Below, one piece after another: positions 3,603-31,317 of a stretch of 64,000 nt of DNA. The first letter of the stretch is position 1. Each line of letters begins with the position of its first letter. Position numbers and translations under genes: made by a program. This stretch comes from Syntrophaceae bacterium (GTDB taxonomy: Bacteria > Desulfobacterota > Syntrophia > Syntrophales > PHBD01): contig JABLXX010000004.1 of assembly GCA_013177825.1 (NCBI GenBank), positions 101,990 to 165,989 on the forward strand, read 5' to 3'. A model generated the notes under the pieces. The model was not told where the DNA came from. It saw only the letters and a program-made list of their open reading frames with translations, and ran no database searches.

Positions 3603-3650
3603 GCCCTCAACTCCTTTATTAATGAATGTTTAAGCAGGAGGTGGCTTAAG

Positions 3651-6260: not shown

Positions 6261-6641
6261 ATGATCAAACTTGTTTTTTGTGCAAAGCGCCATCCGAATA
6301 TGTCACGGGTTGAATTTCACGACTATTGGTTAAATCATCACGGCCCATTATTTAAGAAGTTTGCTGATACATACAGGGCCGTACGTTATGTGCAGAGCCA
6401 CACCATTGATTCGCCATTAAACGAGAATATCATGAAATCCAGGGGGACAATGGAAGCGTATGATGGTGTTGGTGAGATATGGTGGCAGTCGGAAGAAGAT
6501 TTCCTCGCAGCCATCAATTCACCGGAAGGTCAAAAACTGCGCGTAATGTTTGTTGAAGATGAATCAAAATTCGTTGATCTGAAGGCATCCTCTGTTTTTT
6601 TTACGGTTGAGCACGTTCTCATTGACGGAAAGGTATCGTAA
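6261..6641 (+). CDS. EthD-domain protein
   Basis: ORF 6261..6641, RBS AAAGGAGA upstream. N-terminus MIKLVFCAKRHPNMSRVEFHDYWLNHHGPL matches my memory of EthD-family small dimeric alpha/beta-barrel proteins. Confidence 0.6.
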   Translation: MIKLVFCAKRHPNMSRVEFHDYWLNHHGPLFKKFADTYRAVRYVQSHTIDSPLNENIMKSRGTMEAYDGVGEIWWQSEEDFLAAINSPEGQKLRVMFVEDESKFVDLKASSVFFTVEHVLIDGKVS

Positions 6642-6676
6642 TCAAGGAGAGTGTCAGACAATAGGGTAGCAATTAA

Positions 6677-6716
6677 GAAAAAGGGGGTCACAGAATGTAA
6701 TCTGTGACCCCTTTTG
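6677..6716. terminator. bidirectional rho-independent terminator
   Basis: AAAAA GGGGTCACAGA atgtaa TCTGTGACCCC TTTT. An 11-bp perfect stem (6684-6694 / 6701-6711) is flanked by an A-run and a T-run. It can terminate both the EthD gene (+) and tRNA-Phe (-). Confidence 0.75.
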
Positions 6717-6722
6717 GTGTCA

Positions 6723-6798
6723 TGGTGGGCCAGGGCAGAATTGAACTGCCGACACCCGGATTTTCAGTCCGGTGCTCTACCGACTGAGCTACCGGCCC
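6723..6798 (-). tRNA. tRNA-Phe (anticodon GAA), CCA encoded
   Basis: The reverse complement GGGCCGGTAGCTCAGTCGGTAGAGCACCGGACTGAAAATCCGGGTGTCGGCAGTTCAATTCTGCCCTGGCCCACCA folds as a 76-nt cloverleaf. Acceptor 7 bp (one G-U), D arm GCTC/GAGC, anticodon stem CCGGA/TCCGG with loop CTGAAAA, T arm GGCAG-TTCAATT-CTGCC. Confidence 0.95.
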
Positions 6799-6835
6799 GT
6801 TTTTGCATCGGTTGCTCCCCCGATTGGGGATGCGT

Positions 6836-6864
6836 TTTGTAGTAAATCTCCTTTTCCTTGTCAA
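6836..6864 (-). promoter_or_regulatory. putative sigma70-type promoter for tRNA-Phe
   Basis: Minus strand reads TTGACA (6864-6859), a 17-nt spacer, then TACAAA (6841-6836), about 37 nt upstream of the mature tRNA 5' end. Confidence 0.4.
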
Positions 6865-6871
6865 GCCCTTT

Positions 6872-7375
6872 TTATCCCGCTTCCGGGCCGAAAGGCAGAA
6901 CCATCTGTGGGCTCTCCCTGTGCTCGCCGATCACGATCGTTCCGGCGATCTTGTCGTGCCAGCCCTGCTTCTGGGGATCCACAGCCACCCAGAGGAATCC
7001 CAACAGGAATATGGATGACAGGTGATAGCCCACCCAGCGGAGAAAGGCGAGGCCCGGCGTCATGGGCACGCCGTCCAGCCGGACCACCCGGATCCGGAAG
7101 AGCATCTTGCCGGGGGTCTGCCCGGCGACGCCGTGGAAAAACGTGAAGTAGAAGCAGTTCAGGCACACGAGGGCCAGTCCGTAGAGGACCATGAATGAGG
7201 ATACGGATTCGAAGATGTCCTCCGGCCAGGGGAGCCCCCCCTGAATCCAGGAAAGATTGAGGGCCGCCACCCCTGTGATGAAGAGGAACACGGCGATGGT
7301 GGTGAGGATGAACCAGTCGATGGACATGGCGAACGCCCGCTTCCAGAAGCCGACGTAGGGAATGAGGGAATTCAA
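6872..7375 (-). CDS. RDD-family membrane protein
   Basis: ORF 6872..7375. 167 aa starting MNSLIPYVGFWKRAFAMSIDWFILTTIAV, with 3 predicted TM segments and a WHDKIAGT motif typical of RDD proteins. Confidence 0.7.
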   Translation of the reverse strand: MNSLIPYVGFWKRAFAMSIDWFILTTIAVFLFITGVAALNLSWIQGGLPWPEDIFESVSSFMVLYGLALVCLNCFYFTFFHGVAGQTPGKMLFRIRVVRLDGVPMTPGLAFLRWVGYHLSSIFLLGFLWVAVDPQKQGWHDKIAGTIVIGEHRESPQMVLPFGPEAG

Positions 7376-8157
7376 GATCCTTCCTCCGGAGTTTCTTCTT
7401 CCGCGGCCCTGCCGAGTCCGCCGATCTCGTACTGCAGCATGGCCGCGACGGCCGGGGCGGCCGTCTCTACCTTGAGAACGTTCCTCCCCAGGCTGACGGA
7501 ACGGAACCCCGCCTCCCGGGCCAGGCGGACCTCATCGGCGGTGAGCCCGCCCTCGGGTCCGACGATCAGGCAGTATGCCGCGGCGGTTTTCCGGAGGCTG
7601 CTGATGGTCTCCCGGAACCCCGCCTCCCGCTCCTCCTCCCAGAAGATCAGGCGGCAGGCGTCGTAGGGCAGCGAGGTCCGGACCATCTCCTCGAAAGAGA
7701 GAATGGAATCGACCTCCGGGATGTGGGCCCGCCCCGTCTGGCGGGCCGATTCCTCCGCAATCCGCTGCCACCGGGCGACCCGCGCCGCGCCTTTGTCGGC
7801 GGACAGCCGGGGGACGCTGCGGGCCGAGCGGTAGGGGATGATCCGGCTGACGCCCAGCTCCACGACCTGCCGGATGATGGCGTCCATCTTGTCCCCCTTC
7901 GGGATGGACTGGGCGAGGATGATCGGAACGAATGGATGTTTCCGTGCGGTGCGGTTCAGGATCGTGAGCGTGGCCGAGCTGCCCGAGAAGAAAGAGACGA
8001 CGGCCTCGCACTCGGTGCCGCGGCCGTCGCTGAGAACGATTCCCTCCCCCTCCTTGAGGCGGAGGACATTCTTCAGGTAGTGGCTCTGGGATTCGTCGAT
8101 GATCCGGGCTTCCCCCGGCTCCGGCAGGGAATCCAGAAAGATGCGCGGTCGGGTCAC
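7372..8157 (-). CDS. rsmE: 16S rRNA (uracil1498-N3)-methyltransferase (RsmE family)
   Basis: 3' part of ORF 7372..8775. GTG at 8157 overlaps the prmA stop (GTGA) and gives VTRPRIFLDS.... C-terminal SPOUT motifs IVGPEGGLTADEV and LGRNVLKVETAA. The upstream 200 codons of the ORF are Pro/Arg/Gly-rich read-through. Confidence 0.8.
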   Translation of the reverse strand: MTRPRIFLDSLPEPGEARIIDESQSHYLKNVLRLKEGEGIVLSDGRGTECEAVVSFFSGSSATLTILNRTARKHPFVPIILAQSIPKGDKMDAIIRQVVELGVSRIIPYRSARSVPRLSADKGAARVARWQRIAEESARQTGRAHIPEVDSILSFEEMVRTSLPYDACRLIFWEEEREAGFRETISSLRKTAAAYCLIVGPEGGLTADEVRLAREAGFRSVSLGRNVLKVETAAPAVAAMLQYEIGGLGRAAEEETPEEGS

Positions 8158-9116
8158 GCGCCGCCCCCTCCCTTTTTCAGGGCGAAGCAGATCCATTCCT
8201 TTTCCGTCACGAGCCGCTGGACCGTGAGCCGGTCGGTGATGAAGTGCTCCTCGATGGTGCCCCGCTGCTGTTCCAGGATGCCCGACAGGATGAGCCAGCC
8301 ACCGTCTTCCAGGAGGGACGTCAGGTGGGAGCGCAGCTTGAGGAGGAGCTTGGCGGTCAGGTTGGCCACGATCAGGTTGAAGGAGTCCCGGATGGTGGAG
8401 ACGTCCCGGTTGACGACGGCCACCCGCTCGGAGACCTGGTTGATGGCTACGTTCTCCCGGGCGATCTCGACGGCCTTCCGGTCGACGTCGACGCAGAGGA
8501 CCTTCTCGGCGCCGATCTTGGCCGCGGTGATTCCCAGGATGCCCGTTCCCGTTCCCACGTCCAGGACGTGCCAGGTCATTTCGTGGCGGCCGTGCAGCAT
8601 CAGGTCCTCGATGGCCTCCAGGCACATGCGGGTGGACGGGTGCTGGCCCGTGCCGAAGGCCATGCCCGGATCGATGTCGATGACGATGTCCCGGCCCGAA
8701 GAGGCATAGCGCTCCCAGGTGGGCTTGACGACGATGCTGCGGCTCACCCGGAGGGGCTTGAAATACTTTTTCCACTCCTCCCCCCAGTCGGGGTTCTCGA
8801 TGATCTCCCGGTTCACGCGGACGGCAGGGAGTTCGGGAAACAGCTCCGTTAGGTTTTCCAGGTAGGCCGTCAGCGAGGCGATGCGGTTTTCCGACCGCAC
8901 GTCCAGCGGGAGAAAGGCATAGATGGTCTCTTCGGAAGAGAGGCTGGGGAAATCCTCGTTTTCATCCTGCGTCACGGGGGCTTCCTGATAGACTCCCTGG
9001 ACGCCAAGCTCGGTCATGAAGTTCGACAGGGCGTCCGACAGCTCCGGCGGGCTCTGGAGCGACACCTTCAGCCAGCGTTCGTGCTTTTTTTCCCCCTTGG
9101 ACGATTGTTCCGGCAT
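8154..9116 (-). CDS. prmA: ribosomal protein L11 methyltransferase
   Basis: ORF 8154..9173. ATG at 9116 is preceded by GGGAGAGG. Motifs IDPGMAFGTGQHPSTRMCLE and the SAM site VLDVGTGTGILGI. Confidence 0.85.
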   Translation of the reverse strand: MPEQSSKGEKKHERWLKVSLQSPPELSDALSNFMTELGVQGVYQEAPVTQDENEDFPSLSSEETIYAFLPLDVRSENRIASLTAYLENLTELFPELPAVRVNREIIENPDWGEEWKKYFKPLRVSRSIVVKPTWERYASSGRDIVIDIDPGMAFGTGQHPSTRMCLEAIEDLMLHGRHEMTWHVLDVGTGTGILGITAAKIGAEKVLCVDVDRKAVEIARENVAINQVSERVAVVNRDVSTIRDSFNLIVANLTAKLLLKLRSHLTSLLEDGGWLILSGILEQQRGTIEEHFITDRLTVQRLVTEKEWICFALKKGGGGA

Positions 9117-19973: not shown

Positions 19974-20963
19974 TTACGCCAGCGCCCGCCGGCACAGCTC
20001 CGTCACGAAGAGGGGTTCCAGGCCCTCGTCGCGGGCGACCTTCCGCAGATTCAGGAAGCACATGGGGCAGAGGAAGACCATGGCCTGGGCGGCCGCGTCC
20101 TTTGCATCCCTGATGTTCCAGCCTTTCACCTCCGCCGCGCGATCCCGGTCGCGGGCCATCAGGGGCGCGCCGCAGCAGAGGGCATTGATCCGCTCGTACT
20201 TCCGCGGCGGGCGCTCCACGCCGAGGAGCTCAAAGATCCGGTCGAGGTAGTAGTCCTTGCCCGGGGTGTAGCGGGATGCGCAGGGAGCCTGGTAGGCCAC
20301 GCGGAGCGGGATCTTTTTCAGCTGGTCCTTCCGCTTGAGCAACTCCCGGTAGAGGTACTCGAAGATATGGACCGGGTGGAATGGGACCTTCAGACCGTAC
20401 TCCGGTGCAAGGGACGTCAGCAGCGTGTAGCAGTCGTCGTGGAAACAGACGACTTCTTCCGAGTTGAGGGCCGCGAGATTGTCGATGAACCGCTGGGCCT
20501 CCTTCGCGACGGGGCTCGGCCGGCCCAGGTGGATGTAGCCGACGGTGCAGAAGTAGTCGGCCCCCTCGACGACCGTCAGTCCCTCGAACAGCGGGTTCTC
20601 CAGGAGGTCCCGCACCATGTCGCCGACGATGCAGATGTTCATCACCGGCTTTCCCGGGTCGCCCTTCTTCACGACGGTGGGCAGGCCGGACAGGCCGGCG
20701 AAGTTCTTGAAGGCCTGCTCGGGGATTCCGAGGGCTCCCGACGCTTCCTGACGCTCGTTCAGGAGATCGAAGGGATTGGCCTGGGTCGGGCAGACCATGT
20801 TGCAGGAGGCGCAGGTGACACATGCCCCCACGATGGGCGGCGTTCCCCCCGCCACGAGGTCCCGCATCTCCGTTTGGGCGCGCTCCAGATCGTAGTTGAC
20901 ATAGGGACAGAATTCCAGACATCGGCCGCAAAAATCACACCGCTCCGCATGAAACATGACCAT
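19974..20963 (-). CDS. (Fe-S)-binding protein with 2x[4Fe-4S] ferredoxin and CCG domains (HdrD/GlpC/LutA-like)
   Basis: ORF 19974..20963. CDFCGRCLEFCP and CVTCASCNMVCP motifs, plus CCG-type motifs (QAPCASRY, ALCCGAPL, LCPMC). Confidence 0.75.
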   Translation of the reverse strand: MVMFHAERCDFCGRCLEFCPYVNYDLERAQTEMRDLVAGGTPPIVGACVTCASCNMVCPTQANPFDLLNERQEASGALGIPEQAFKNFAGLSGLPTVVKKGDPGKPVMNICIVGDMVRDLLENPLFEGLTVVEGADYFCTVGYIHLGRPSPVAKEAQRFIDNLAALNSEEVVCFHDDCYTLLTSLAPEYGLKVPFHPVHIFEYLYRELLKRKDQLKKIPLRVAYQAPCASRYTPGKDYYLDRIFELLGVERPPRKYERINALCCGAPLMARDRDRAAEVKGWNIRDAKDAAAQAMVFLCPMCFLNLRKVARDEGLEPLFVTELCRRALA

Positions 20964-20972
20964 CCTCCTTAT

Positions 20973-21467
20973 TCACTCCCGTGACCGGCTCTCACCCCGG
21001 TCCTGAATTTTCTTCCGGATCGCCTCCACCGCGCTGTCTTTCATCTTGACGAGTTCGCGCCGCTGCTTCGCCGTGAGCTCCTTCACGGCATTGAACTGGA
21101 TCTCCGTTTCGATCTTCGCGAAGGCCGCCATGGTCGAGAGGACCTTTTCCGTCTGCTTCAGGATGCCCTTCTCGTCCAGCTCGTCCGCCGCCAGAAGCTG
21201 ATCCAGGTTGTCCCGCTCCTGGCGGAAGGTTTTCTTCAGCTCGGCGCTCTTTTTGACGTCGCCTCTGGTCTGTTTCCGGATGCGGCTGATCTGCTCCTCT
21301 GAGATCCCTAACATCTGGACGACCTTCGGGCGTTCCCACCAGTGCCGGTCGGAATCGTCGTCGCTTCGGGCGGGGGCGGCGGAAACGACGGGGTTTGCGA
21401 TCAGGAGGAGCAGTAGTGCCGCCATCAAACCAGGGAGGATTCCCCTTCGATGAATGCCGCTGTGCAT
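20973..21467 (-). CDS. periplasmic Spy/CpxP-family (LTXXQ) protein
   Basis: 3' part of ORF 20973..22199. ATG 21467 is preceded by AAAGGAGGAGAA. Signal peptide, then a helical Lys/Glu-rich protein with LTAKQ and GISEEQ motifs. 164 aa. Confidence 0.6.
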   Translation of the reverse strand: MHSGIHRRGILPGLMAALLLLLIANPVVSAAPARSDDDSDRHWWERPKVVQMLGISEEQISRIRKQTRGDVKKSAELKKTFRQERDNLDQLLAADELDEKGILKQTEKVLSTMAAFAKIETEIQFNAVKELTAKQRRELVKMKDSAVEAIRKKIQDRGESRSRE

Positions 21468-21496
21468 GGTTCTCCTCCTTTCCGTCGGCTTCGGTA

Positions 21497-22414
21497 TCAG
21501 CGCCTGTATTTCTCGTCCAGTTGGGCGTTGATCGCCCTCATGATGACCGCGGTGGCTCCCTCGAACTGTTCCCTGAATTTCTGCTGTGAATCCCGGGACA
21601 GGAGCCGGAATTTCTCGGGGATTCGAAATTCCTTCAACTGGTTGTCCAGCGTGATGGGCTCTCCGATGCGGTAGGTGATCCAGCCGCTCTGTGCGACGGG
21701 ACTGCTGCCGGGATAAACGGCGTCGGAATTGTTGCAGCCCACCGGTATGATCGTCTTCCCCGTGTGCAGGGCCACCTGGGCGATGCCCGTCCGCCCCTCT
21801 CCGAGTTGGGATCCCCGGGTGCCCTCGGGAAAAATGATGACGCTCAACCCCTTCTCGAAGAGAGCGTAAAGGCTCAGGTCCGCCACCTTCTCCATGATCT
21901 TCTCGTACAGGTCGCGGATGAAATCCACGAAGGTATCTCCCATCAGGCCGGCGACTTCCGCCAGGCCTTTCCGGTAGGCTTCCGGGTCGTCGCATTTCCG
22001 GTCGACGACGTCGCGTATCTTTCGGTATTCTTCCCGGTCGATCATCTTCCCGAACCGCTTCTTGTATAATTCCTCGATGAGGTAACCCATGGACGGTACC
22101 GGGATCAGGTTGCAGAGATCCAGGCCCTTGGCGAGCAGGTCGTTCCGGTAGTACTTGCCCTTCACCCAGACCGTCGTGAACGGGAATTTCAACCGCCAAA
22201 GCTTGTACTGAAACGGCCAGTAGTTGAACCGGTCCGTGTGGTTCATTGCGTAGATGACGTTTTCGTTCCGGGGGATCCGCTCGGCGTTTTCCAGGCGGAT
22301 GTCCACATGCCGGAATATTTCGTAGTTCGGTCTCAGGAAGAACGTGCCCAGGAACCGCTGGACCTTTGGGTCCGATACAAGATGGATGTTATTGAGGTAT
22401 TCGAGATCCACCAT
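21497..22414 (-). CDS. lysophospholipid/glycerolipid acyltransferase (PlsC/LPLAT family)
   Basis: 3' part of ORF 21497..22702. ATG 22414 after GGAGGGAACGG. NHTDRFN (HX4D) and FPEGTRG motifs. Confidence 0.75.
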   Translation of the reverse strand: MVDLEYLNNIHLVSDPKVQRFLGTFFLRPNYEIFRHVDIRLENAERIPRNENVIYAMNHTDRFNYWPFQYKLWRLKFPFTTVWVKGKYYRNDLLAKGLDLCNLIPVPSMGYLIEELYKKRFGKMIDREEYRKIRDVVDRKCDDPEAYRKGLAEVAGLMGDTFVDFIRDLYEKIMEKVADLSLYALFEKGLSVIIFPEGTRGSQLGEGRTGIAQVALHTGKTIIPVGCNNSDAVYPGSSPVAQSGWITYRIGEPITLDNQLKEFRIPEKFRLLSRDSQQKFREQFEGATAVIMRAINAQLDEKYRR

Positions 22415-22445
22415 CGCTTCCGTTCCCTCCTTTTTGCAGCCTCGT

Positions 22446-23192
22446 TCAGGATGATATTTCCCCCACCAGGATCCGCCGGATCCGATCCAGCTCCTGGGGC
22501 GTGTCCACTTCGATGGAGTCGTGTTCCGTGACCACGACCCGGATGCGGTAGCCGTGCTCCAGGGCCCGGAGCTGCTCCAGGGATTCGAGATGCTCCAGGG
22601 TCCCCTCGGGGAGCTTCGTGAAGGTGTCGAGAAAGTGCTTCCGGTAGGCGTAGATGCCGTGGTGCTTGTAGTATTCCGCCGTTTTTCCCCGGTCCCGGAC
22701 ATAGGGAATGGTGGAGCGGGAGAAATAGAGGGCGTTTCCGTCCCGGTCGAAGACCGTCTTCACGGCGTTCGGGTGGGTGATTTCCTCGTCCCGCCGGATC
22801 CGGTAGATGAGGGTGGACATGGGCAGGGAGGGATCGCCCACGAGCGGTGCGACGACCTCGTCGATCTGGACCGGTTCGAAGACGGGCTGATCGCCCTGGA
22901 CGTTCACCACGATGTCGTCCTCCCGGAGGCCCAGGATCCCCGCTGCTTCGGCGATCCGGTCCGAGCCGGAGCGGTGCGTGTCCGCCGTCATGACGGCCCG
23001 TCCTCCGAAGGCCTCCACAGCCGCGAAAATGCGCGGATCATCCGTGGCGACGGCAGCCAGGTCGGCCGTTCCGGACATGAGGACGCGCTCGTAGACGTGC
23101 TGGATCATGGGCTTTCCCGCCAGGTCCGCCAGGGGCTTGCCCGGGAACCGCGTCGATTCGTACCGAGACGGGATGATGACGGCGATCGTCAT
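22446..23192 (-). CDS. kdsB: 3-deoxy-manno-octulosonate cytidylyltransferase (CMP-Kdo synthetase)
   Basis: 3' part of ORF 22446..24140, ATG 23192. MTIAVIIPSRYESTRFPGKPLADLAGKPMIQHVYER, NVQGDQP. 248 aa. Confidence 0.9.
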   Translation of the reverse strand: MTIAVIIPSRYESTRFPGKPLADLAGKPMIQHVYERVLMSGTADLAAVATDDPRIFAAVEAFGGRAVMTADTHRSGSDRIAEAAGILGLREDDIVVNVQGDQPVFEPVQIDEVVAPLVGDPSLPMSTLIYRIRRDEEITHPNAVKTVFDRDGNALYFSRSTIPYVRDRGKTAEYYKHHGIYAYRKHFLDTFTKLPEGTLEHLESLEQLRALEHGYRIRVVVTEHDSIEVDTPQELDRIRRILVGEISS

Positions 23193-23194
23193 GG

Positions 23195-24187
23195 TCACTG
23201 AATGGCGCAGCACTGGCCCAGATAGGGGTCGCGCTGCGAGAGATGGTTTGCGACGTAATCCTGCACGGCTTCCTCCAGGGGGGCGGACGGGACGGGACAG
23301 CCCGTAGAGGCGAGGCGGTCCGTTTTCGCTTCCGTGAAGTACTGGTACTGCTCGTCCAGCCCCGGCGGCATGTCGATGTAGTCGATGACTGCGGGCCGGT
23401 CCATGGCCCGGAAGACCGCCGCCATCAGGTCGTTCCAGGTCCGGGCCTTTCCGCTTCCCAGGTTGAAGATCCCGTTGGCCTCCGGGTGGTTCAGGAGCCA
23501 CCACATCGCCTCCGCGCAGTCCTTCACGTAGACGAAGTCCCGCATCTGCCCGCCGTCGGCGTACTCGGGGCGGTACGACTTGAACAGCCGGACCTTCCCG
23601 GTGGCGCGGATCTGGTGGAAGGCCTTGAAGACAACGCTCGTCATGTCGCCCTTGTGGTACTCGTTGGGGCCGAAGACGTTGAAGAACTTGAGGCCCGCCA
23701 TGTGCCGGTCGGCGCCGCGCCGGAGCGCCCAGAGGTCGAAGACCTGCTTCGAGTAGCCGTACATGTTGATGGGCTTGAGAAGCGCCGACGTCGCGTCGTC
23801 GTCGGAGAAGCCCAGGGAGCCGTCGCCGTAGGTGGCCGCGGAGCTGGCGTAGAGGAAGCGGATGCCGTTCCGGATCGCCCAGTCGGCCAGTCGGCAGGAA
23901 TAGAGGTAGTTGTTCGTCCAGAGGTAGTCGGCGTCCTTCTCCGTCGTGGACGAGCAGGCGCCCATGTGGACCACGGCCCGGACGGTGAAGGGCACCTGGT
24001 CGGCGTAGACCATCTTGAGGAAGTCGTCCTTGTGGATGTATTCGACGAACCGCCGGTTCACGAGGTTCTTCCACTTGTCGGAGGTCCCCAGGCGGTCGAC
24101 GACGACGATGTCCTCGATGCCTTCGCTGTTGAGCTTCCACACGAAGGCGCTGCCGATGAAGCCGGCGCCGCCGGTGACGACGATCAT
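23195..24187 (-). CDS. hldD: ADP-L-glycero-D-manno-heptose 6-epimerase
   Basis: 3' part of ORF 23195..24475. ATG 24187 after GGAAGGAAG (alternative ATG 24208). MIVVTGGAGFIGS, catalytic YGYSK, about 330 aa. Adjacent to kdsB. Confidence 0.85.
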   Translation of the reverse strand: MIVVTGGAGFIGSAFVWKLNSEGIEDIVVVDRLGTSDKWKNLVNRRFVEYIHKDDFLKMVYADQVPFTVRAVVHMGACSSTTEKDADYLWTNNYLYSCRLADWAIRNGIRFLYASSAATYGDGSLGFSDDDATSALLKPINMYGYSKQVFDLWALRRGADRHMAGLKFFNVFGPNEYHKGDMTSVVFKAFHQIRATGKVRLFKSYRPEYADGGQMRDFVYVKDCAEAMWWLLNHPEANGIFNLGSGKARTWNDLMAAVFRAMDRPAVIDYIDMPPGLDEQYQYFTEAKTDRLASTGCPVPSAPLEEAVQDYVANHLSQRDPYLGQCCAIQ

Positions 24188-24240
24188 GCCTGCATCTTCC
24201 TTCCGCATGGTTGAAAGGCCTCTCGCGCTTCCCGGCCCCG

Positions 24241-25443
24241 CTACAGGGCCTCGGCCGCCTTCTTCACCGCCGCCCGGATCTGCTCCAGGCGCCCCTCGGG
24301 CATCCGGATCGGGAGGCCCAGGAAGAGGGTCCGCCCCAGGAGGTCGTGGGCCTGCGGGTACTGGCGGATGCTGTAGTCCACCTTCCCCCGGTAGATGGGA
24401 TTCGTGAAGGGGAAGCTCTTCGGGTTGGCCGTGGACCAGGCGATCAGGTGCTCCCAGTTGGCCAGGTAGTGCCACTTGTTCTTCTTGAAACAGACCGTGT
24501 CGACGCCGCCCGCGCCGAGGGCCGCCTGGAAGGCCTCCGCCTGTGCCTCCGTGGGGAAGTTGAAGGCCAGGTGCGTCGCCGTGTCGCCATCCGGGTCCGG
24601 GATCGCCCGGAAGCCGATCACGGGGATGCCCGACAGCATTTCCTTCACGGCGGCCTTGTTCTTCTTCTGCTCCGCGATGATGAAGTCGAGCTTCCGGAGC
24701 TGGGCGAGGCCCAGGGCTCCCTGCAGTTCGTTCATCCGGAAGTTGAACCCGAGGATGGTGCGGCCTTCCATGGCCCGGCTGACGTTCGGGTTGTGGTCGT
24801 GACCGTGGTCGTGGTACCAGTCGGCCCGGTCGTAGAGGTCCTTCCTGTCCGTCAGGACCATCCCGCCCTCGCCGGTGGTCAGGGTCTTGTAATAATCAAA
24901 GCTGAACGTGCCCATCTCCCCGAAGGTGCCGAGCTTTCTTCCCTTGTAGCTTCCGCCGACGGATTGGGCGTTGTCCTCCAGGACCATGAGCTGGGAGCTG
25001 CGGCAGGTCTCCATAATCCGGCCGATGTCCGCCGGGGCGCCGCACATGTGGACGGGAATGACGGCCTTCGTGTAGGGCGTCATCTTCCGGATGATGTCGT
25101 CGGGGTCCATGTTCAGGGACGCGTCGATGTCCGCCGCGACGGGGATGGCCCCCACCTCGAGGACGGCCTCGTACGTTGCGATAAAGGTAAATGCCGGAAC
25201 GATGACCTCATCGCCGGGGCCCACGCCCATGGCGGAGAGAGCCACCGAGAGGGCCGTCGACCCGGACGTGACGCCCAGGGCGTGGGCGGCTCCGTGATAG
25301 CGCTTGAACTCCTCCTCGAACTGGCGGACCTTGAAGACGCCCTTCCGCTCCTTATCGAATCCGTAACGCGCGAAGACGCCCGTTTCCAGGACGTCCAGAA
25401 CTTCCTTTTTCTCCTCGCTGCCGATCAGTTCCATTCCGGACAT
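24241..25443 (-). CDS. DegT/DnrJ/EryC1-type PLP-dependent sugar aminotransferase (KdnA-like candidate)
   Basis: ORF 24241..25443, 400 aa. PLP-lysine context SFDYYKTLTTGEGG. Small-domain pattern typical of sugar aminotransferases. Confidence 0.8.
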   Translation of the reverse strand: MSGMELIGSEEKKEVLDVLETGVFARYGFDKERKGVFKVRQFEEEFKRYHGAAHALGVTSGSTALSVALSAMGVGPGDEVIVPAFTFIATYEAVLEVGAIPVAADIDASLNMDPDDIIRKMTPYTKAVIPVHMCGAPADIGRIMETCRSSQLMVLEDNAQSVGGSYKGRKLGTFGEMGTFSFDYYKTLTTGEGGMVLTDRKDLYDRADWYHDHGHDHNPNVSRAMEGRTILGFNFRMNELQGALGLAQLRKLDFIIAEQKKNKAAVKEMLSGIPVIGFRAIPDPDGDTATHLAFNFPTEAQAEAFQAALGAGGVDTVCFKKNKWHYLANWEHLIAWSTANPKSFPFTNPIYRGKVDYSIRQYPQAHDLLGRTLFLGLPIRMPEGRLEQIRAAVKKAAEAL

Positions 25444-25488
25444 GGCTTTTTCTCCATCCTTGTCGTTTTTGATCGTGGGAAGGGACGC

Positions 25489-26646
25489 TCAGAGAGCATC
25501 CCGGTAAATGTCGATGGCGTCCTCCCGGGTGACTTTCCGGGGGTTGTTGGCCAGCGGGCGCGCCACGGTGAGGGCGACGTCCGCCAGGGCCGGCAGATCC
25601 TTCTCGGCGATGCCGAATTCCTCCAGGGTCATTGCCAGGCCGCAGTCCTCGATGAGGAGCTCTACCGCGTCCAGGGCGAGCGTGGCGGCGTCCCGCATCG
25701 AGACGCCTTCCACCTCCTGCCCCATGACCTCGGCGAGGACGGCGAACTTCTCGATGGCGCCGGGAAGGTTGTAGGCCATCACCGCGGGAAGCATCAGGGT
25801 GTTGGCCATCCCGTGGGGGATGCCCCAGGCGCCGCCGAGGGGGTACGAGAGGGAGTGGACCGCCGTGACGCCCGCATTCGCCAGGCCAAGGCCCGCGTAA
25901 AGGCTTCCCAGGAGCATGCGTTCCCGGGCCTCCAGGTCGCTTCCGTTGTGAACGCAGGTCCGCAGGTTCTCGGCGATGAGGCCAACGGCCTCCAGGGAAA
26001 TCGTTTCGCTCATGGGTGATGCGTTGATGGAGGTGTACGACTCGATGGCGTGGCAGAGGGCGTCGATTCCCGTGGAGGCGGTGGCCTGCGCGGGGAGGCT
26101 CAGGGTCAGTTCCGGGTCCAGGAGGGCGACTTCGGGGTACAGGTAGGGGCTGTTCATGCCCTCTTTCTTCTTCAGGTTCTTTCGGACGAAGACGGCCGTG
26201 AAGGTGACCTCGCTGCCGGTGCCGGCGGTAGTGGGGACCATGATGGTCGGGAGGCCCGGACCGGGGACCTTGTTCAGTCCCAGGTAATCGACGGCCTTGC
26301 CCTTGTTGCCGGCCAGGGCGGCCACGGCCTTGGCCACGTCCATGGAGCTGCCGCCGCCGATCCCCACGACGAGATCGCACTTGCCCTTCAGGGCGGCCTT
26401 GGCGCCCTCGTCGGCCCTCTCCAGGGCCGGTTCCGGCTCCACGCCGTCAAACAGCGAATAGCGCAGGCCGCTCTTGTCGAGCAGGTCCTTCACGGTTTTC
26501 CGGAAGCCTGCCTCGGCCAGGGCGTGATCGAGAACGATCAGGGGGCGTGCCCCCCCCAGTTCCCGGATGTGGTCGGCCAGGCTGCGGAAGGAGCCCGTGC
26601 CGAAAACGATTTTTTTTGCCCCCGTATAGGTGAACGGTCGGATCAT
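25489..26646 (-). CDS. iron-containing (group III) alcohol dehydrogenase family oxidoreductase (KdnB-like candidate)
   Basis: ORF 25489..26646, 385 aa. GGGSSMDVAKAV nucleotide motif and His-rich metal site (HAIESY, HSLSYPLGG...HG). Confidence 0.8.
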   Translation of the reverse strand: MIRPFTYTGAKKIVFGTGSFRSLADHIRELGGARPLIVLDHALAEAGFRKTVKDLLDKSGLRYSLFDGVEPEPALERADEGAKAALKGKCDLVVGIGGGSSMDVAKAVAALAGNKGKAVDYLGLNKVPGPGLPTIMVPTTAGTGSEVTFTAVFVRKNLKKKEGMNSPYLYPEVALLDPELTLSLPAQATASTGIDALCHAIESYTSINASPMSETISLEAVGLIAENLRTCVHNGSDLEARERMLLGSLYAGLGLANAGVTAVHSLSYPLGGAWGIPHGMANTLMLPAVMAYNLPGAIEKFAVLAEVMGQEVEGVSMRDAATLALDAVELLIEDCGLAMTLEEFGIAEKDLPALADVALTVARPLANNPRKVTREDAIDIYRDAL

Positions 26647-26809
26647 CGTTTTTTCCCTCCTGTTCCGCCGCCGAAGCGGCCAAGGTGTTGAAACAAGGGA
26701 TGCTTATACATGATGAGGGACTCGATGGAAAGGGAAAAAACGGGACCGCCGGTTCGGGCAAACCCCGGTTTGCTTTGCCTTTTCCGGGAGGTGTGATAGG
26801 TAGGGACCC

Positions 26810-27982
26810 ATGAATCCCTGGAAAACGTCGCGCCGCATCGTCCTCACCTGCGCCCGGGGCATGGTTCCCTTCCTTCTCACGGAAGTGGCCGGGCTGGGAT
26901 TCCCCGTCCGCACCGAGACGGAGACGGCCGTGGAAACAGAGGGGTCTCTCACGGATTCCCTGCGCCTGAACCTCCGCCTCCGGACGGCCCACCGGGTCCT
27001 CTACCACCTTGCGACCCTGGAGGCCGACGGTCCCGGGAGCCTCTACGGGGGGATCACCGACCTCCCGTGGGAAGAATACATCCGCGAGGACGGCTACCTG
27101 ACGGTGACCTGCACGGTGAATCACCCCACCATCAACGACTCCCGCTTCGTGAACATGAAGGCGAAGGACGCCATCGTGGACCGCATGACGGCCCGCCGCG
27201 GCCGCCGTCCGGATTCCGGGCCGGAGCGGACCGGGGCGGTCGTTCACGTTCACTGGCAGGGAAACCGCGCGGAGATCTTTCTCCACACCTCCGGAGAGCC
27301 GCTGTCCCGCCGGGGGTACCGCCGGATCCCCATGGCGGCACCCATGCAGGAGACCCTTGCGGCAGGAGTCCTGATGGCGGCCGGCTGGAAGGGGGAAGGG
27401 AACCTCGTCAACCCCATGTGCGGGAGCGGCACGCTGGCCGTCGAGGGAGCCCTGATGGCCCTGAACCGGGCCCCGGGACTGCATCGTGAGCATTTCGGGT
27501 TCATGTCCGTCCGGGGTTTCCCGGAAAAGGAATGGGACGTCCTCCTCCGCCAGGCCCGGAAAGAAGGCCGGAGAAGTATTCCCGGCCGCATCGTCGCCAC
27601 CGACATCGAGCGGGAGGCCGTGGCGGCGGCCCGGAAGAATGCCCGGCGGGCCGGGGTGGAGGAGCACATCTCCTTCTCCGCCGGCGACTTCATGAGAACG
27701 GAGGTCCCCCCCGGGGACGGACTCGTGATTTTCAACCCCCCCTACGGAGAGCGCCTGGGGGACCAGGCTGTTCTCGGGGAGCTGTACGGACGCCTCGGCG
27801 ACTTCCTGAAGAAATCCTGCCAGGGATACACCGGCGCCGTTTTCACCGGCAACCTGGCCCTGGCCAAGCGGATCGGCCTCCGCACCAGCCGGAGAATCCC
27901 CTTCTACAACGGGGATATCGAGTGCCGCCTCCTCCTCTACGACCTCTATGGCGGCAGCCGCAAGGGAGACCGCGGGGTTTGA
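26810..27982 (+). CDS. THUMP-domain SAM-dependent RNA methyltransferase (RlmL/UPF0020-like)
   Basis: ORF 26810..27982. N-terminal THUMP-like region, SAM motif VNPMCGSGTLAVE and catalytic IFNPPYGERLG. Confidence 0.75.
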   Translation: MNPWKTSRRIVLTCARGMVPFLLTEVAGLGFPVRTETETAVETEGSLTDSLRLNLRLRTAHRVLYHLATLEADGPGSLYGGITDLPWEEYIREDGYLTVTCTVNHPTINDSRFVNMKAKDAIVDRMTARRGRRPDSGPERTGAVVHVHWQGNRAEIFLHTSGEPLSRRGYRRIPMAAPMQETLAAGVLMAAGWKGEGNLVNPMCGSGTLAVEGALMALNRAPGLHREHFGFMSVRGFPEKEWDVLLRQARKEGRRSIPGRIVATDIEREAVAAARKNARRAGVEEHISFSAGDFMRTEVPPGDGLVIFNPPYGERLGDQAVLGELYGRLGDFLKKSCQGYTGAVFTGNLALAKRIGLRTSRRIPFYNGDIECRLLLYDLYGGSRKGDRGV

Positions 27983-28037
27983 ATTTTCCTCCTCCGTAGG
28001 GTAAGAAGAAGTTCATCGTTTCGGTGAGGAGAATCTC

Positions 28038-28844
28038 ATGGGCGACATGACAAAACATCCCATCGGCGTGTTCGACTCCGGCGTGGGAGGGCTCACGGTA
28101 GTGCGGGCGCTCATGGAGCGGCTCCCCTTCGAGGGCATCGTCTATTTCGGAGATACCGCCCGGGTTCCCTACGGCGTCAAGTCCGTCGAGACGGTGACCC
28201 AGTACGCCATCGAGATCACGGACTTCCTGCTGAAGAAGGGAGTCAAACTCCTCGTCATCGCCTGCAACACCGTCGCCGCCGTGGCCGGTGACGCCGTGCG
28301 GAGCCGCTCGCCCGTGCCGGTCCTGGACGTCATCGACGCCGGCGCCCGTTCCGCCGTCCGGGAGACACGCTCCCACCATGTCGGCGTCATCGGGACCCCC
28401 GCCACGATCAACAGCAACGCCTATGCCCGGGCCATTCATGCCCTCGATCCGGCGACCCGCATCTTTTCCCAGGCCTGTCCGCTTTTCGTGCCCCTCGTGG
28501 AGGAAGGGTGGCTCGATCACACAGTGACGCGGATCACGGCCAACGAATACCTGAAGCCCGTCCTGGCGGAGCACCTGGACACCCTGGTCCTGGGGTGCAC
28601 CCATTATCCCCTGCTGAAACCACTCCTCGGAGAGATCGCCGGTCCCGATGTTCACCTGGTGGATTCGGGGGAGGCGATGGCGGATGCCACGGCGGACCTC
28701 CTGACGGAGCTTCACCTGGGAAACCCGAGCCGGGAGAAGCCCTCCTATTCCTGCTATGTCAGCGACGTTCCTTTCCGGTTCCAGACCATGGCCGAGCGGT
28801 TTCTCGGCAGGACGATCGGCCACGTCGAGCTGGTGAAACTCTGA
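28038..28844 (+). CDS. murI: glutamate racemase
   Basis: ORF 28038..28844. IGVFDSGVGGLTV, the two catalytic Cys contexts IACNTVAA and LGCTHYPLL. Confidence 0.9.
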   Translation: MGDMTKHPIGVFDSGVGGLTVVRALMERLPFEGIVYFGDTARVPYGVKSVETVTQYAIEITDFLLKKGVKLLVIACNTVAAVAGDAVRSRSPVPVLDVIDAGARSAVRETRSHHVGVIGTPATINSNAYARAIHALDPATRIFSQACPLFVPLVEEGWLDHTVTRITANEYLKPVLAEHLDTLVLGCTHYPLLKPLLGEIAGPDVHLVDSGEAMADATADLLTELHLGNPSREKPSYSCYVSDVPFRFQTMAERFLGRTIGHVELVKL

Positions 28845-30080
28845 ATGATGGAACGGGTCGTTGTCACCGGACTGGGAACCCTCAACGCAACCGCCAAGAG
28901 CGCCCCTGTCTTCGCGCAGGCCCTGCGGGAGGGCCGCTGCGGGATCGGGCCGTTTTCGGTCTTCGATCCCTCGACGTTCCGGACACAGATCGCCGCGGAA
29001 GTGAAGGATTTCAATCCCCGCGACCACATCCCCCGGCCGTACCCGATCAAGCGCATGTCCCGGGCGGACCTTCTCGGATTCGCCGCGACCCTGGAGGCCC
29101 TGCAGGACGCCGGGCTAGCCCCGCTTTCGCCGGTACTGGCGGAGGAGACGGGCGTCGTCATCGGCGGAGGCGGGGGGGGGCTCCTGGAGGGGGAGCGGTT
29201 CTACGGCGAATACCTGCGCACGGAGGGCAGGCTGGCCCGCTTCTCTGCCCTGTCGGCGGTCTACTGCGCCTCATCGGCGGACCGGATCGCGAGCCTCCTG
29301 GGGCTCCGGGGACCCAAGACCACCTTCATGACGGCCTGCTCTTCCGGGGCCACCGCCGTCGGCTACGCCCGGGACCTGATCCGGAGCGGAGCAGCCCCGG
29401 TCGTCATCGCCGGCGGGACCGAGCCCCTCTGCCGCATCACCTACGCCGCTTTCAACGCTCTCCAGGCGGTGGACCCGGAACCCTGCAAGCCCTTCGCCGG
29501 AAACCGGGCGGGTCTTTCCCTGGGAGAGGCGGCGGGGATCCTGGTTCTCGAGTCCCTCGGACACGCCCGGGCCCGGGGGGCCCGGATCTATGCCGAGGTG
29601 CTGGGCTACGGCGTCACCTGCGACGCGCACCACATGACGGCCCCCGACCCGGAGGCCTCCGGGGCGGTCCGGTCGATGCGGGAGGCCCTGCGCGACGCCG
29701 GCGTTTCCGCGGAGCGGGTCGATTACGTCAACGCCCACGGCACCGCCACGCCGGCCAACGATGTCATGGAGAGCCGGGCCATCCGGCACGTCTTCGGCGA
29801 CCGGGCCGGGCGAATCCCCGTCAGCTCCACGAAGTCCATGACGGGCCATACCCTGGGCGCCTCGGGAGCCCTCGAGGCGGTCGCGTCCGTCCTGGCGATC
29901 CGCCACCGGTTCATCCCGCCGACGATCCACTGCACCGTGCCGGATCCCGAATGCGATCTCGACTATGTCACCGAGGGGGCGCGGGAAACGGACCTGGCGG
30001 TGATTCTGTCCAATTCCTTCGCCTTCGGGGGGAACAACACCTCGCTCGTCATCGGGCGGTTCGAAGGAGGGAACGGGTAG
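28845..30080 (+). CDS. beta-ketoacyl synthase (FabF/KAS II-like) with intact Cys-His-His triad
   Basis: ORF 28845..30080. The ATG abuts the murI TGA. Active-site contexts TACSSGATA (Cys), NAHGTATPAND (His), SMTGHTLGASG (His). Confidence 0.85.
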   Translation: MMERVVVTGLGTLNATAKSAPVFAQALREGRCGIGPFSVFDPSTFRTQIAAEVKDFNPRDHIPRPYPIKRMSRADLLGFAATLEALQDAGLAPLSPVLAEETGVVIGGGGGGLLEGERFYGEYLRTEGRLARFSALSAVYCASSADRIASLLGLRGPKTTFMTACSSGATAVGYARDLIRSGAAPVVIAGGTEPLCRITYAAFNALQAVDPEPCKPFAGNRAGLSLGEAAGILVLESLGHARARGARIYAEVLGYGVTCDAHHMTAPDPEASGAVRSMREALRDAGVSAERVDYVNAHGTATPANDVMESRAIRHVFGDRAGRIPVSSTKSMTGHTLGASGALEAVASVLAIRHRFIPPTIHCTVPDPECDLDYVTEGARETDLAVILSNSFAFGGNNTSLVIGRFEGGNG

Positions 30081-30081
30081 C

Positions 30082-31317
30082 ATGGACCGGCGCGTCGCGA
30101 TCACCGGCATCGGCATCGTCTCCCCCCTCAGCTCCGGCCGCGAGGCCTTCGGGAAGGCCCTTTTTGCCGGGGAAAGCGGGATCGCCCCCGTGACCGCATT
30201 TCCCGTGGAGGCGCTTTCCTGCCGGCTGGCGGCGGAAATCCGCGATTTCCAGGCGAGGGACTTCATCTCCGTCAAAAACCTCCGGCGCATGGACCGCCTC
30301 TCCGCCGTGGCGACGGCGGCGGCCCGGATGGCCTTGGACGACGCGGGGCTCGCCGTAACGCCGGCCAACCGGGACCGCACGGGCATGATCCTGGGGACGG
30401 CCTGGGGCGGCACCGACGTGACGGTCTCCTTTGCCCGGGTCCTGGTGACGGAGGGACCCGGATCCGCCAACCCGATCCTCGTGCCCAACGTGGTCATGAA
30501 CGCCCCGGCGGGGCATGCCTCCATCGAGCTGGGGTTCCGGGGGATCAATACGACGGTCAACCACTACGCCGTCTCGGCGGAGTCGGCCCTGGCCTACGGC
30601 GCTCAGGAGATCCGGCGGGGCGCCGCGGACGTCCTTCTGGCCGGCGGGGCCGACGTCCTGGCCCCTTTCTACTTCGAGTCCCTGACGCGCTTCAAGGCGC
30701 TGTCGCCCCTCCAGGGCGGGGGCTCCGAAGGCGCCCGCCCCTTCGACCTCCGGCGGAACGGGCCGGTGGCAGGGGAGGGCTGCGGGATCCTCTGCCTGGA
30801 GCCGCTGGATGCGGCCCGGGAGCGGGGCGCAACCGTCCATGCGGAGATCGTGGGGCAGGGCATGGCCTCTTCGCCGGCGCCCATGACCGGCTGGCCGGAG
30901 GACCCGCGGGGCCTTGTCCTGGCGGTCCGCCGGGCGCTCCGGTCCGCCGGTTGCGGGCCGGAGGACGTGGACGCCGTCTTCGCCGCCGCCAGCGGCGGCC
31001 TTCAGCCGGACCTCCTGGAGGCGGAAGGGCTGGAGCAGGTGTTCGGGCCAGGTGGAAAGATGCCGCTCGTGACGGCCCTGAAGGGCGCCCTCGGGGAGAG
31101 CTTCACCTCCGGGGGGATGCGGGCGGCGGCCTTGGCCCTGGCGCTCCGGGACGGCGCCGTGCCCCCCACCCTGGGACTGGAAGACCCGGTCCGGCCACTG
31201 AATATCGTGACGGGGCCGTCCGTCCGGGCGAATGTGCAAAGAGGACTCCTGAACGGGATCTCCCACGGGGGGAGCTACGTCTCCCTTCTGTTTTCCAATA
31301 TCGGGGAAGAATCATGA
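30082..31317 (+). CDS. ketosynthase-fold protein lacking the catalytic triad (chain-length-factor/KS-beta-like partner)
   Basis: ORF 30082..31317, 1 nt after the KS stop. Aligned by eye to the upstream KS: ACSSG becomes AVSAE, AHGTAT becomes AAASGG, TGHTLG becomes KGALGE. Cys, His and His are all replaced. Confidence 0.75.
   Translation: MDRRVAITGIGIVSPLSSGREAFGKALFAGESGIAPVTAFPVEALSCRLAAEIRDFQARDFISVKNLRRMDRLSAVATAAARMALDDAGLAVTPANRDRTGMILGTAWGGTDVTVSFARVLVTEGPGSANPILVPNVVMNAPAGHASIELGFRGINTTVNHYAVSAESALAYGAQEIRRGAADVLLAGGADVLAPFYFESLTRFKALSPLQGGGSEGARPFDLRRNGPVAGEGCGILCLEPLDAARERGATVHAEIVGQGMASSPAPMTGWPEDPRGLVLAVRRALRSAGCGPEDVDAVFAAASGGLQPDLLEAEGLEQVFGPGGKMPLVTALKGALGESFTSGGMRAAALALALRDGAVPPTLGLEDPVRPLNIVTGPSVRANVQRGLLNGISHGGSYVSLLFSNIGEES

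Follow-up and report, generated by a model that had tools for sequence, protein, structure and literature searches.

A KdnA-Type Aminotransferase and an Iron Alcohol Dehydrogenase-Family Protein in a Predicted 8-Amino-Kdo Operon of an Anaerobic Syntrophales Bacterium

In a 64,000-nucleotide stretch of a Syntrophaceae genome (the whole of which is referred to here as the window), we identified an operon that probably encodes a pathway for 8-amino-3,8-dideoxy-D-manno-octulosonate (Kdo8N), with an iron alcohol dehydrogenase (Fe-ADH)-family protein of a type that we call FeADH-I as the Kdo 8-dehydrogenase. According to this prediction, Kdo8N would be both produced and activated by the operon for the lipopolysaccharide (LPS) inner core. 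FeADH-I would be a slower-evolving relative (i.e., a sister group or an ancestral grade) of the Shewanella-type KdnB, and it would do the job of KdnB in most of the KdnA-bearing genomes of the phylum.

The operon runs in the order Fe-ADH, kdnA, hldD, kdsB, and a PlsC-type acyltransferase gene (Table 1), with gaps of 45, 53, 2, and approximately 30 nt, and a sequence scan found no terminator-like sites on the minus strand within it. The order and positions of the first four genes, as proposed in the initial annotation, were confirmed. That annotation gave no coordinates for hldD, which we located as listed in Table 1. A Shine-Dalgarno sequence (GGAGG) lies 5' of the Fe-ADH start codon (ATG), and a GGAGG also accompanies the start of the PlsC-type gene past the kdsB stop codon. 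Since a search of the divergent intergenic region for the sigma-70 consensus returned no match, the operon promoter is placed by position only. The true KdsB start is the ATG located 2 nt past the hldD stop codon; a 564-amino-acid (aa) open reading frame (ORF; 22446-24140) in the mechanical ORF list was rejected, since it extends too far, into hldD in a different frame. In searches of the same genome, hldD was the only match with >30% identity, and no second kdsB was found. With no kdsB other than the operon copy, the genome must rely on the product of this gene to activate whichever form of Kdo is made. The PlsC-type acyltransferase gene is cotranscribed with kdsB; it is syntenic in Syntrophaceae-type loci (including L007, L009, L012, L013, and L017).

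Table 1. Positions and profile matches of the operon genes and the adjoining intergenic region in the window
Feature	Positions	Strand	Length, matches, and remarks
Fe-ADH (FeADH-I)	25489-26646	minus	385 aa; Pfam Fe-ADH, 167 bits; ADH_Fe_C, 190 bits
DegT aminotransferase (KdnA-I)	24241-25443	minus	400 aa; PF01041, 288 bits
hldD, ADP-L-glycero-D-manno-heptose 6-epimerase	23195-24187	minus	330 aa; TIGR02197, 401 bits (cut-off, 274.6)
kdsB, CMP-Kdo synthetase	22446-23192	minus	NF003952, 316 bits (cut-off, 193); TIGR00466, 237 bits (cut-off, 155)
PlsC-type acyltransferase	21497-22417	minus	~306 aa; PF01553, 42.6 bits; downstream of kdsB
Divergent intergenic region, rlmL (plus)/Fe-ADH (minus)	26647-26809		163 bp; presumed operon promoter region

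Judged by its sequence, the aminotransferase is unambiguously KdnA-type. It matched Shewanella KdnA (PDB 5k8b) at 44% identity (354 bits; E value, 1.1e-104; residues 1 to 396 on 1 to 392), and the runner-up in the PDB comparison matched residues 39 to 261 only (178 bits). In a quick tree, for which the outgroup came from the same genome only (six DegT paralogues), 56 KdnA-type sequences formed one clade (support, 100) apart from these paralogues. This clade includes KdnA of Shewanella and Thiomicrorhabdus together with the window aminotransferase, which belongs to clade KdnA-I (support, 94), the sister of the Shewanella-containing clade KdnA-II (support, 100). The window protein retains the Schiff-base lysine (Lys186) and all of the 19 invariant residues that are common to KdnA-I and KdnA-II and absent from the DegT paralogues; the KdnA-specific invariants include Y27, F29, R33, D183, D212, H215, H217, R279, and D287, as well as W324, W330, and H332. 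The two clades differ consistently at only two positions, both conservatively. Clustering of the KdnA-type gene with kdsB and a gene for an Fe-ADH-fold oxidoreductase was observed in the window, in Shewanella, in Thiomicrorhabdus, and in the phylum sample.

The best PDB match of the Fe-ADH was a methanol dehydrogenase (8zrl; 262 bits), and KdnB (5k8c; 90 bits) ranked approximately 38th. Identities were approximately 37 to 40% to methanol dehydrogenase, DhaT, and FucO (248 to 262 bits) versus 28% to Shewanella KdnB (BLASTP). None of the NCBIfam equivalogs reached its cut-off for this protein (e.g., SarD, 334 bits versus 700; FucO, 311 bits versus 523), and a search of the same genome found no closer KdnB homologue. 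In public annotations, FeADH-I is named alcohol dehydrogenase or 1,3-propanediol dehydrogenase. The window protein keeps the metal ligands (D195, H199, H264, and H278), the GGGS motif (residues 97 to 100), and D40. In both FeADH-I and KdnB, Thr is invariant at the position of FucO N151, a residue that contacts the substrate (PMC10087678); the position of FucO F254, which is Phe in the generic enzymes, is Leu or Ile in both. FeADH-I and KdnB differ from each other at the pocket-region positions F149, F153, and L124.

In an unrooted tree of the Fe-ADH family (LG+C20), a branch with a support of 100/99 separated FeADH-I and KdnB from FucO, DhaT, and Mdh. The generic side of this branch also held four paralogues from the same genome and the eleven best matches in genomes that lack KdnA, together with four second copies. 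KdnB was monophyletic (100/100) with the window Fe-ADH outside its clade, and the KdnA-independent FeADH homologues formed a separate, strongly supported clade. In this tree, FeADH-I is a distinct, KdnA-linked clade that groups with KdnB rather than with characterised alcohol dehydrogenases. The internal branch on which this grouping depends is short and that of KdnB is long, which makes the placement of KdnB approximate; in such an unrooted tree, the root may fall on the KdnB branch. Strict orthology with KdnB was rejected for the window Fe-ADH on the basis of its identity to KdnB, its length (385 versus 356 aa), its location upstream of kdnA, and its place outside the KdnB clade.

Among 401 sampled genomes of the phylum, 107 (about a quarter) were KdnA positive, and the gene was carried by 12 of the 13 sampled relatives in this order. 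In 69 of the 107 genomes, the gene immediately upstream of kdnA, in the same orientation, encodes FeADH-I (gaps, 21 to 543 bp, with one of 2.4 kb). Another 24 have true KdnB as the partner, its gene adjoining kdnA on the downstream side in 15 and being unlinked in 9. In the other 14, several of which are contig ends, no adjacent partner was present; these counts are not phylogenetically independent. The orientation was consistent in all adjacent cases (FeADH-I upstream in 69/69; KdnB downstream in 15/15). In 73 of 80 Syntrophales loci, an orthologue of the Fe-ADH also precedes the kdnA-like gene in the same orientation, and with the counts across the phylum this shows that the arrangement is not due to chance. 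All 25 of the genomes with KdnB contain KdnA, and none of them had an FeADH match among the approximately 150 best listed (E < about 1e-87). Thus, among the matches listed, FeADH-I and KdnB are mutually exclusive. In one KdnA-I subclade (L106, L127, and L111), the partner has been swapped: KdnB is encoded elsewhere in the genome and FeADH-I is absent. The downstream location of kdsB seen in the window recurs in many families, and several of the loci have waaA nearby.

In the pathway that we propose, FeADH-I would act on free Kdo, oxidizing the primary alcohol at C8 with its metal centre and NAD+ to yield 8-oxo-Kdo. The KdnA-family enzyme, as its family membership suggests, would then transfer the amino group of L-glutamate to C8, giving Kdo8N. 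By the Shewanella precedent, the single KdsB would convert this product into the CMP-sugar, and WaaA, encoded elsewhere, would transfer it to lipid IVA. We infer the functional equivalence of FeADH-I and KdnB because of their alternating distribution and their shared pocket substitutions. The initial annotation had suggested an aminated Kdo, or a related sugar modification by oxidation and transamination, in this LPS, with the DegT protein and the Fe-ADH as members of the same families as KdnA and KdnB. The aminotransferase assignment is borne out by the full-length match to 5k8b, the KdnA clade, and the 19 signature residues. The assignment of the Fe-ADH holds in part: the protein groups with KdnB at 100/99, but it is not a KdnB orthologue and is nearer to Mdh, DhaT, and FucO by similarity. 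The trees did not place both proteins in unrelated subfamilies, the outcome that the initial annotation had set against its own proposal, and the suggestion of an aminated Kdo gains support from a KdnA-type aminotransferase with a KdnA-linked Fe-ADH that groups and alternates with KdnB.

It is rather improbable that the same oxidation and transamination act on an acceptor other than free Kdo (i.e., heptose, given the adjacent hldD; CMP-Kdo; lipid A-attached Kdo; or another ulosonic acid) and yield a different amino sugar. The location of hldD between kdnA and kdsB, which the window shares with Syntrophaceae-type loci, is consistent with such an acceptor, as are the pocket-region differences between FeADH-I and KdnB and the occurrence of a KdnB-like group (41 to 46% identity) in KdnA-negative genomes. 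However, linkage to hldD occurs only within part of a single order, while linkage to kdsB recurs in many families. The 19 family-specific invariants common to KdnA-I and KdnA-II, with only two conservative differences between the clades, also argue against another acceptor, as do the KdnA-I subclade that works with a genuine KdnB and the absence of any NeuB-type gene from the operon.

Alternatively, the Fe-ADH could be an ordinary alcohol dehydrogenase of catabolism or aldehyde detoxification that does no more than share a promoter with the LPS genes; the oxo substrate of the aminotransferase would then come from a different enzyme, or the aminotransferase would have some other role. This alternative would fit the similarity to methanol, propanediol, and lactaldehyde dehydrogenases and the public labels. 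It would also fit the close homologues (44 to 49% identity) in KdnA-negative genomes and genome G210, which retains FeADH-I, hldD, and kdsB with no kdnA between them and has only a divergent KdnA-like gene (38% identity) elsewhere. Nevertheless, FeADH-I still adjoins kdsB in G210 and in G008, it remains a neighbour of kdnA in at least 15 family-level groups, and the KdnA-independent homologues belong to a clade of their own. Together with the mutual exclusion of FeADH-I and KdnB among the matches listed, these observations make an ordinary dehydrogenase unlikely, even more so than a different acceptor. A silent or decaying remnant in a cell with plain Kdo in its LPS is very improbable: neither ORF is disrupted, all catalytic residues are present, both genes have good ribosome-binding sites, the pair heads the operon that holds the only kdsB and hldD of the genome, and orthologues are kept at 64 to 97% identity across the order.

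Kdo8N has been termed exclusive to Shewanella (PMC4402001). The statement of the initial annotation that this modification has been treated as a Shewanella hallmark agrees with that literature, but KdnA homologues outside Shewanella have already been annotated automatically. They are found in other Gammaproteobacteria, and the JGI annotation names the Syntrophales homologues as Kdo8N transaminase. Such homologues are thus already part of public annotation, while the role of FeADH-I is not. FeADH-I is most likely a relative of KdnB that has been overlooked, as its label in databases is no more specific than "alcohol dehydrogenase." In the literature searched, we found no report of Kdo8N from any member of the phylum. 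More tentatively, and at slightly less than an even chance in our estimation, Kdo8N might be a common inner-core modification of the anaerobes of this phylum, made mostly via the NAD+-linked FeADH-I, with KdnB as a fast-evolving derived offshoot. If so, Kdo8N would be no speciality of Shewanella, FeADH-I would be a previously unrecognised Kdo 8-dehydrogenase, and the "oxidase" chemistry ascribed to KdnB would have arisen secondarily in a single branch and would not be the mechanism with which the pathway began.

The window aminotransferase shares a pyridoxal phosphate fold-type I core and the Schiff-base lysine with the DegT enzymes that act on nucleotide sugars (e.g., perosamine synthetase; 3bn1, 3dr4, ArnB 1mdo, and QdtB 3frk). 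However, these structures align only with residues ~39 to 300 of the window protein (≤178 bits) and lack the N-terminal R-Y-x-F and C-terminal W-H-Y...W-x-H elements of KdnA. FucO, DhaT, and methanol dehydrogenase (1rrm/7qnj, 3bfj, and 8zrl, respectively) resemble FeADH-I in length, metal ligands, and NAD-binding motif; in the window protein, FucO N151 and F254 are replaced by Thr and Leu, and the context is LPS biosynthesis rather than diol or alcohol metabolism.

For Shewanella oneidensis, we take KdnA to be EC 2.6.1.109 (PDB 5k8b) and KdnB to be EC 1.1.3.48 (PDB 5k8c). The Kdo8N pathway of this species was reportedly described by Gattis et al. in 2013 and by Zachman-Brockmeyer et al. in 2016. 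Both Shewanella and the window combine a KdnA-family aminotransferase and a group III Fe-ADH-fold oxidoreductase in a cluster with kdsB. The KdnA signature residues of the Shewanella system are fully kept in the window, and the window dehydrogenase is like KdnB in its metal ligands, its NAD motif, the Thr at FucO N151, and the small aliphatic residue at FucO F254. In contrast, the aminotransferase belongs to a sister clade, and the dehydrogenase is of another lineage, is longer, and is encoded on the upstream side of kdnA instead of the downstream side. The gene order also differs, with hldD between kdnA and kdsB in the window and kdnA-kdnB-kdsB in Shewanella and Thiomicrorhabdus (followed by waaA in the latter). 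Finally, the host of the window is an anaerobe (an uncultured Syntrophales bacterium), and O2-dependent "oxidase" turnover is therefore unlikely, which favours an ordinary NAD+-linked dehydrogenase.

Domain and family profiles confirmed the gene order proposed in the initial annotation, namely, Fe-ADH, DegT aminotransferase, hldD, and kdsB on the minus strand, at the coordinates in the table. The gaps between the five operon genes measure 45, 53, 2, and ~30 nt, Shine-Dalgarno sequences are present, and no terminator-like hairpin was found on the minus strand inside the five-gene run; a promoter scan yielded no match to the sigma-70 consensus. A 564-aa ORF from the mechanical ORF list (22446 to 24140) was rejected, being kdsB over-extended through another hldD frame. 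The window corresponds to positions 101990 to 165989 of contig C20 in the source genome (4.24 Mb; 100% complete; G+C content, ~65%), and its nearest public loci are in uncultured Syntrophaceae/Syntrophales MAGs (93% identity in the aminotransferase). Next to the operon, the 408-aa ORF has a C-terminal match of 31.6 bits to Pfam Metal_resist (Spy/CpxP-like), and the HdrD-like protein carries CCG and 4Fe-4S domains. The 408-aa ORF is syntenic in part among Syntrophaceae loci; since its matches overlap the acyltransferase frame, the true gene is probably far shorter. On the divergent side, the second FabF scores much more weakly on the C-terminal ketosynthase domain.

Features in the window and at the comparison loci (L, locus; G, genome of the phylum sample; C, contig)
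Location	Feature	Position	Strand	Remark
Window	Group III Fe-ADH, 385 aa	26646-25489	minus	Pfam Fe-ADH and ADH_Fe_C
Window	DegT aminotransferase, 400 aa	25443-24241	minus	
Window	hldD	24187-23195	minus	TIGR02197, 401 bits (cut-off, 274.6)
Window	kdsB	23192-22446	minus	NF003952, 316 bits (cut-off, 193)
Window	PlsC-type acyltransferase	22417-21497	minus	Downstream of kdsB
Window	408-aa ORF and HdrD-like protein	19974-22199	minus	Co-oriented, directly downstream of the acyltransferase
Window	rlmL, murI, FabF pair	26810-31317	plus	Divergent from the operon
L132 (G210:C8)	FeADH-I, hldD, kdsB	5995-8964		kdnA cleanly absent, 60-bp gap
L166 (G210:C1)	Divergent KdnA-like gene	5923-7101		38% identity
L105 (G360:C18)	FeADH-I and kdnA	1462-6197		2.4 kb apart
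L008	FeADH-I orthologue	2515-3665		Two overlapping tblastn pieces
L080	FeADH-I orthologue	893-1879		Two tblastn pieces 100 bp apart

Compared with all PDB sequences, the window aminotransferase best matched Shewanella oneidensis KdnA (5k8b) from end to end (E = 1.1e-104; 354 bits), while the next matches, perosamine synthetases, reached 178 bits over residues 39 to 261 only. The ten other DegT paralogues in the same genome gave core-only matches with identities of ≤40%. When the tree was rooted on six of the genome's DegT paralogues, the KdnA-type sequences formed one clade (support, 100) with two branches: KdnA-II (support, 100), where Shewanella and Thiomicrorhabdus fall, and KdnA-I (support, 94), where the window protein falls. 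Conservation analysis of KdnA and KdnB residues revealed 19 positions that are invariant in both KdnA clades and missing from the paralogues (among them Y27, F29, R33, D183, the D212-H-G-H215-D-H217 motif, R279, D287, W324, W330, and H332). KdnA-I is set apart by two conservative positions only, and the residue comparison with KdnA-II gave no sign of a specificity change. As judged from sequence, the window aminotransferase belongs to the KdnA family; the full-length match, the clade, and the 19 residues bear out the KdnA identity suggested initially for the DegT-type protein. Elsewhere in this genome, a stretch of ~57 kb on contig C2 (~37.9 to 95.0 kb) contains six DegT paralogues along with two additional cytidylyltransferase-like genes and probably represents a large region for a surface glycan (O-antigen or nonulosonic acid).

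The dehydrogenase is less easily named. In the PDB, it scored 248 to 262 bits against methanol, 1,3-propanediol, and lactaldehyde dehydrogenases and 90 bits against KdnB (5k8c; 28% identity to the Shewanella enzyme), and it reached none of the NCBIfam equivalog cut-offs. Its public homologues all bear generic names (e.g., "alcohol dehydrogenase class IV" and "1,3-propanediol dehydrogenase"), and a search of the genome for a true or closer KdnB homologue found none. The phylogeny against generic Fe-ADHs (IQ-TREE, LG+C20 PMSF; 57 sequences; unrooted) nevertheless placed it with KdnB. A branch with support of 100/99, found in 100% of the bootstrap trees, separates KdnB and all KdnA-linked sequences of its clade, FeADH-I, from a generic side comprising FucO, DhaT, Mdh, four paralogues of the window's genome (one of them very distant), 11 best matches from KdnA-negative genomes, and four second copies from KdnA-positive genomes. 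A larger quick tree, with 18 such best matches and 7 second copies, gave an identical split. KdnB matches FeADH-I sequences at 94 to 150 bits and any solved generic Fe-ADH at ≤87 bits, which is consistent with this grouping. KdnB itself is monophyletic (100/100) on a long branch whose attachment point inside the FeADH-I group is not fixed by the tree. The grouping of FeADH-I with KdnB thus appears well supported, as read from an unrooted tree with a short separating branch and possible long-branch effects.

The metal ligands D195, H199, H264, and H278 are conserved in the window enzyme and correspond to D196, H200, H263, and H277 of FucO. Also conserved are the GGGS motif (residues 97 to 100) and D40, the position that favors NAD+ in this family. 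Four residues (E72, D79, T150, and N165) are invariant in FeADH-I and KdnB and different in the generic enzymes. T150 aligns with FucO N151, which has been modelled as hydrogen bonding to the substrate hydroxyl (PMC10087678). At the position of FucO F254, 91% of the generic sequences have Phe, whereas FeADH-I has Leu and KdnB has Ile. These parallel changes are compatible with a common substrate that is larger and more polar.

Genomic context connects the two enzymes. Of the 80 Syntrophales loci, 73 have an orthologue of the window's Fe-ADH (64 to 97% identity) upstream of kdnA and in the same orientation. In the phylum sample of 401 genomes (KdnA presence, E ≤ 1e-90), a KdnA-family gene occurs in 107 genomes (57 of 255 genera; 12 of the 13 relatives sampled from the order), these and the following genome counts being raw, with shared ancestry included. 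Coordinate tables place FeADH-I immediately upstream of kdnA and co-oriented with it in 69 of the 107 (gaps of 21 to 543 bp and one of 2.4 kb). A genuine KdnB, 53 to 64% identical to the Thiomicrorhabdus enzyme, is found immediately downstream of kdnA in 15 and unlinked in 9. An adjacent partner is absent in 14 genomes, several of these cases being contig ends, and three genomes (G017, G279, and G008) have a FeADH-I-clade gene elsewhere. KdnA accompanies KdnB in 25 of 25 genomes, and none of these 25 appeared among the ~150 best FeADH matches listed (E below ~1e-87). One KdnA-I subclade (L106, L127, and L111) has lost FeADH-I and encodes KdnB at another site in the genome. Such an exchange of partners is expected if FeADH-I and KdnB do the same job. 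Genomes without any KdnA-family gene (G141 and, in family f48, G079, G146, G207, G237, G265, G293, G367, and G391) encode a second KdnB-like group, 41 to 46% identical to the Thiomicrorhabdus enzyme, that presumably represents a KdnB paralogue acting on another substrate. Two ORFs, one of 399 aa in the opposite orientation and one of 252 aa, occupy the 2.4-kb gap at L105, which looks like an insertion into an otherwise tight pair. The two-piece FeADH-I orthologues on two MAG contigs (L008 and L080) result from misassembly or else are frameshifted pseudogenes.

Bit scores could not serve as a threshold between FeADH-I and generic homologues, since their ranges overlap (~315 to 440 bits versus values as high as 372 bits outside the order); adjacency and trees were therefore used to tell them apart. 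Another oxidoreductase might replace Fe-ADH upstream of kdnA where no Fe-ADH is adjacent, but the neighbors there are unrelated housekeeping genes (TatC, PanC, a sigma-54 activator, a PBP, and a permease), and the partner sits elsewhere in the genome. A possible counterexample to the FeADH-I/KdnA link is G210, a member of the same order whose FeADH-I operon lacks kdnA (L132). This genome encodes a divergent KdnA-like gene elsewhere (L166), standing alone among unrelated housekeeping genes, that keeps most signature motifs, including DHGHVH and WHY..HW, and may represent a third KdnA clade; the link is weakened, not broken. In G008, FeADH-I adjoins kdsB and kdnA is on another contig. Both genomes bind FeADH-I to kdsB, yet they show that FeADH-I and kdnA can be uncoupled. 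As for the enzyme being KdnB proper, its nearest relative, clade, and gene order are not those of KdnB, and we therefore describe it as a separate but related lineage that is predicted to fill the role of KdnB. The suggestion of a KdnB-type enzyme in the initial annotation is supported, in that the enzyme groups and alternates with KdnB, and needs correction as to its low score, its position outside the KdnB clade, and its gene order. The Fe-ADH is a predicted counterpart of KdnB, not KdnB proper.

With these corrections, we consider it fairly probable that the operon encodes a Kdo8N pathway. FeADH-I would use NAD+ to oxidize free Kdo at its C8 alcohol, and KdnA-I would aminate the resulting aldehyde with glutamate as the donor. 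The product would be activated by KdsB, the only one in the genome (a search for a second kdsB found none), and transferred to lipid IVA by WaaA, encoded on contig C25. That free Kdo is used and that KdsB and WaaA accept Kdo8N is adopted from work on Shewanella, as summarized in PMC4402001. The literature consulted describes Kdo8N as exclusive to Shewanella (PMC4402001), in line with the initial annotation, and our literature search found no report of Kdo8N from the organisms studied here. At the gene level, this hallmark does not stand: the JGI automatic name of the Syntrophales homologues is [quoted passage not shown] and homologues 70 to 82% identical to Shewanella KdnA occur in Corallincola, Aliikangiella, Paraferrimonas, Thiomicrorhabdus, Hydrogenovibrio, and others. 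KdnA outside Shewanella was thus already visible in databases. What is assigned here is the first Kdo8N step in the phylum, to a clade that every pipeline labels generic alcohol dehydrogenase.

Among lipopolysaccharide sugars, Kdo is the most conserved. The 8-amino form alters the charge adjacent to lipid A and influences the resistance of Shewanella to polymyxin and bile salts (PMC4402001). If confirmed, our assignment could give a specific function to thousands of "alcohol dehydrogenase" entries, provide an oxygen-independent Kdo8N route of use in the chemo-enzymatic synthesis of Kdo analogues, and offer a natural comparison for the tight cofactor binding by KdnB. It also calls for caution in metabolic models of syntrophs, in which a FeADH-I gene may be counted as an alcohol-oxidizing enzyme.

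KdnB was reportedly characterized at first as a metal oxidase that depends on O2, and crystals obtained later contained tightly bound NAD(H) and zinc. Since an anaerobe cannot rely on O2, a dehydrogenase with an exchangeable cofactor is naturally expected for FeADH-I. We do not adopt the view of FeADH-I as an anaerobe-specific substitute for O2-dependent KdnB, because the same phylum, presumably anaerobic for the most part, includes 25 genomes with genuine KdnB. In Shewanella and Thiomicrorhabdus, the loci are arranged differently, as kdnA-kdnB(356 to 357 aa)-kdsB, followed by waaA in Thiomicrorhabdus. On sequence grounds, the system in the window is predicted to work like the Kdo8N pathway of Shewanella.
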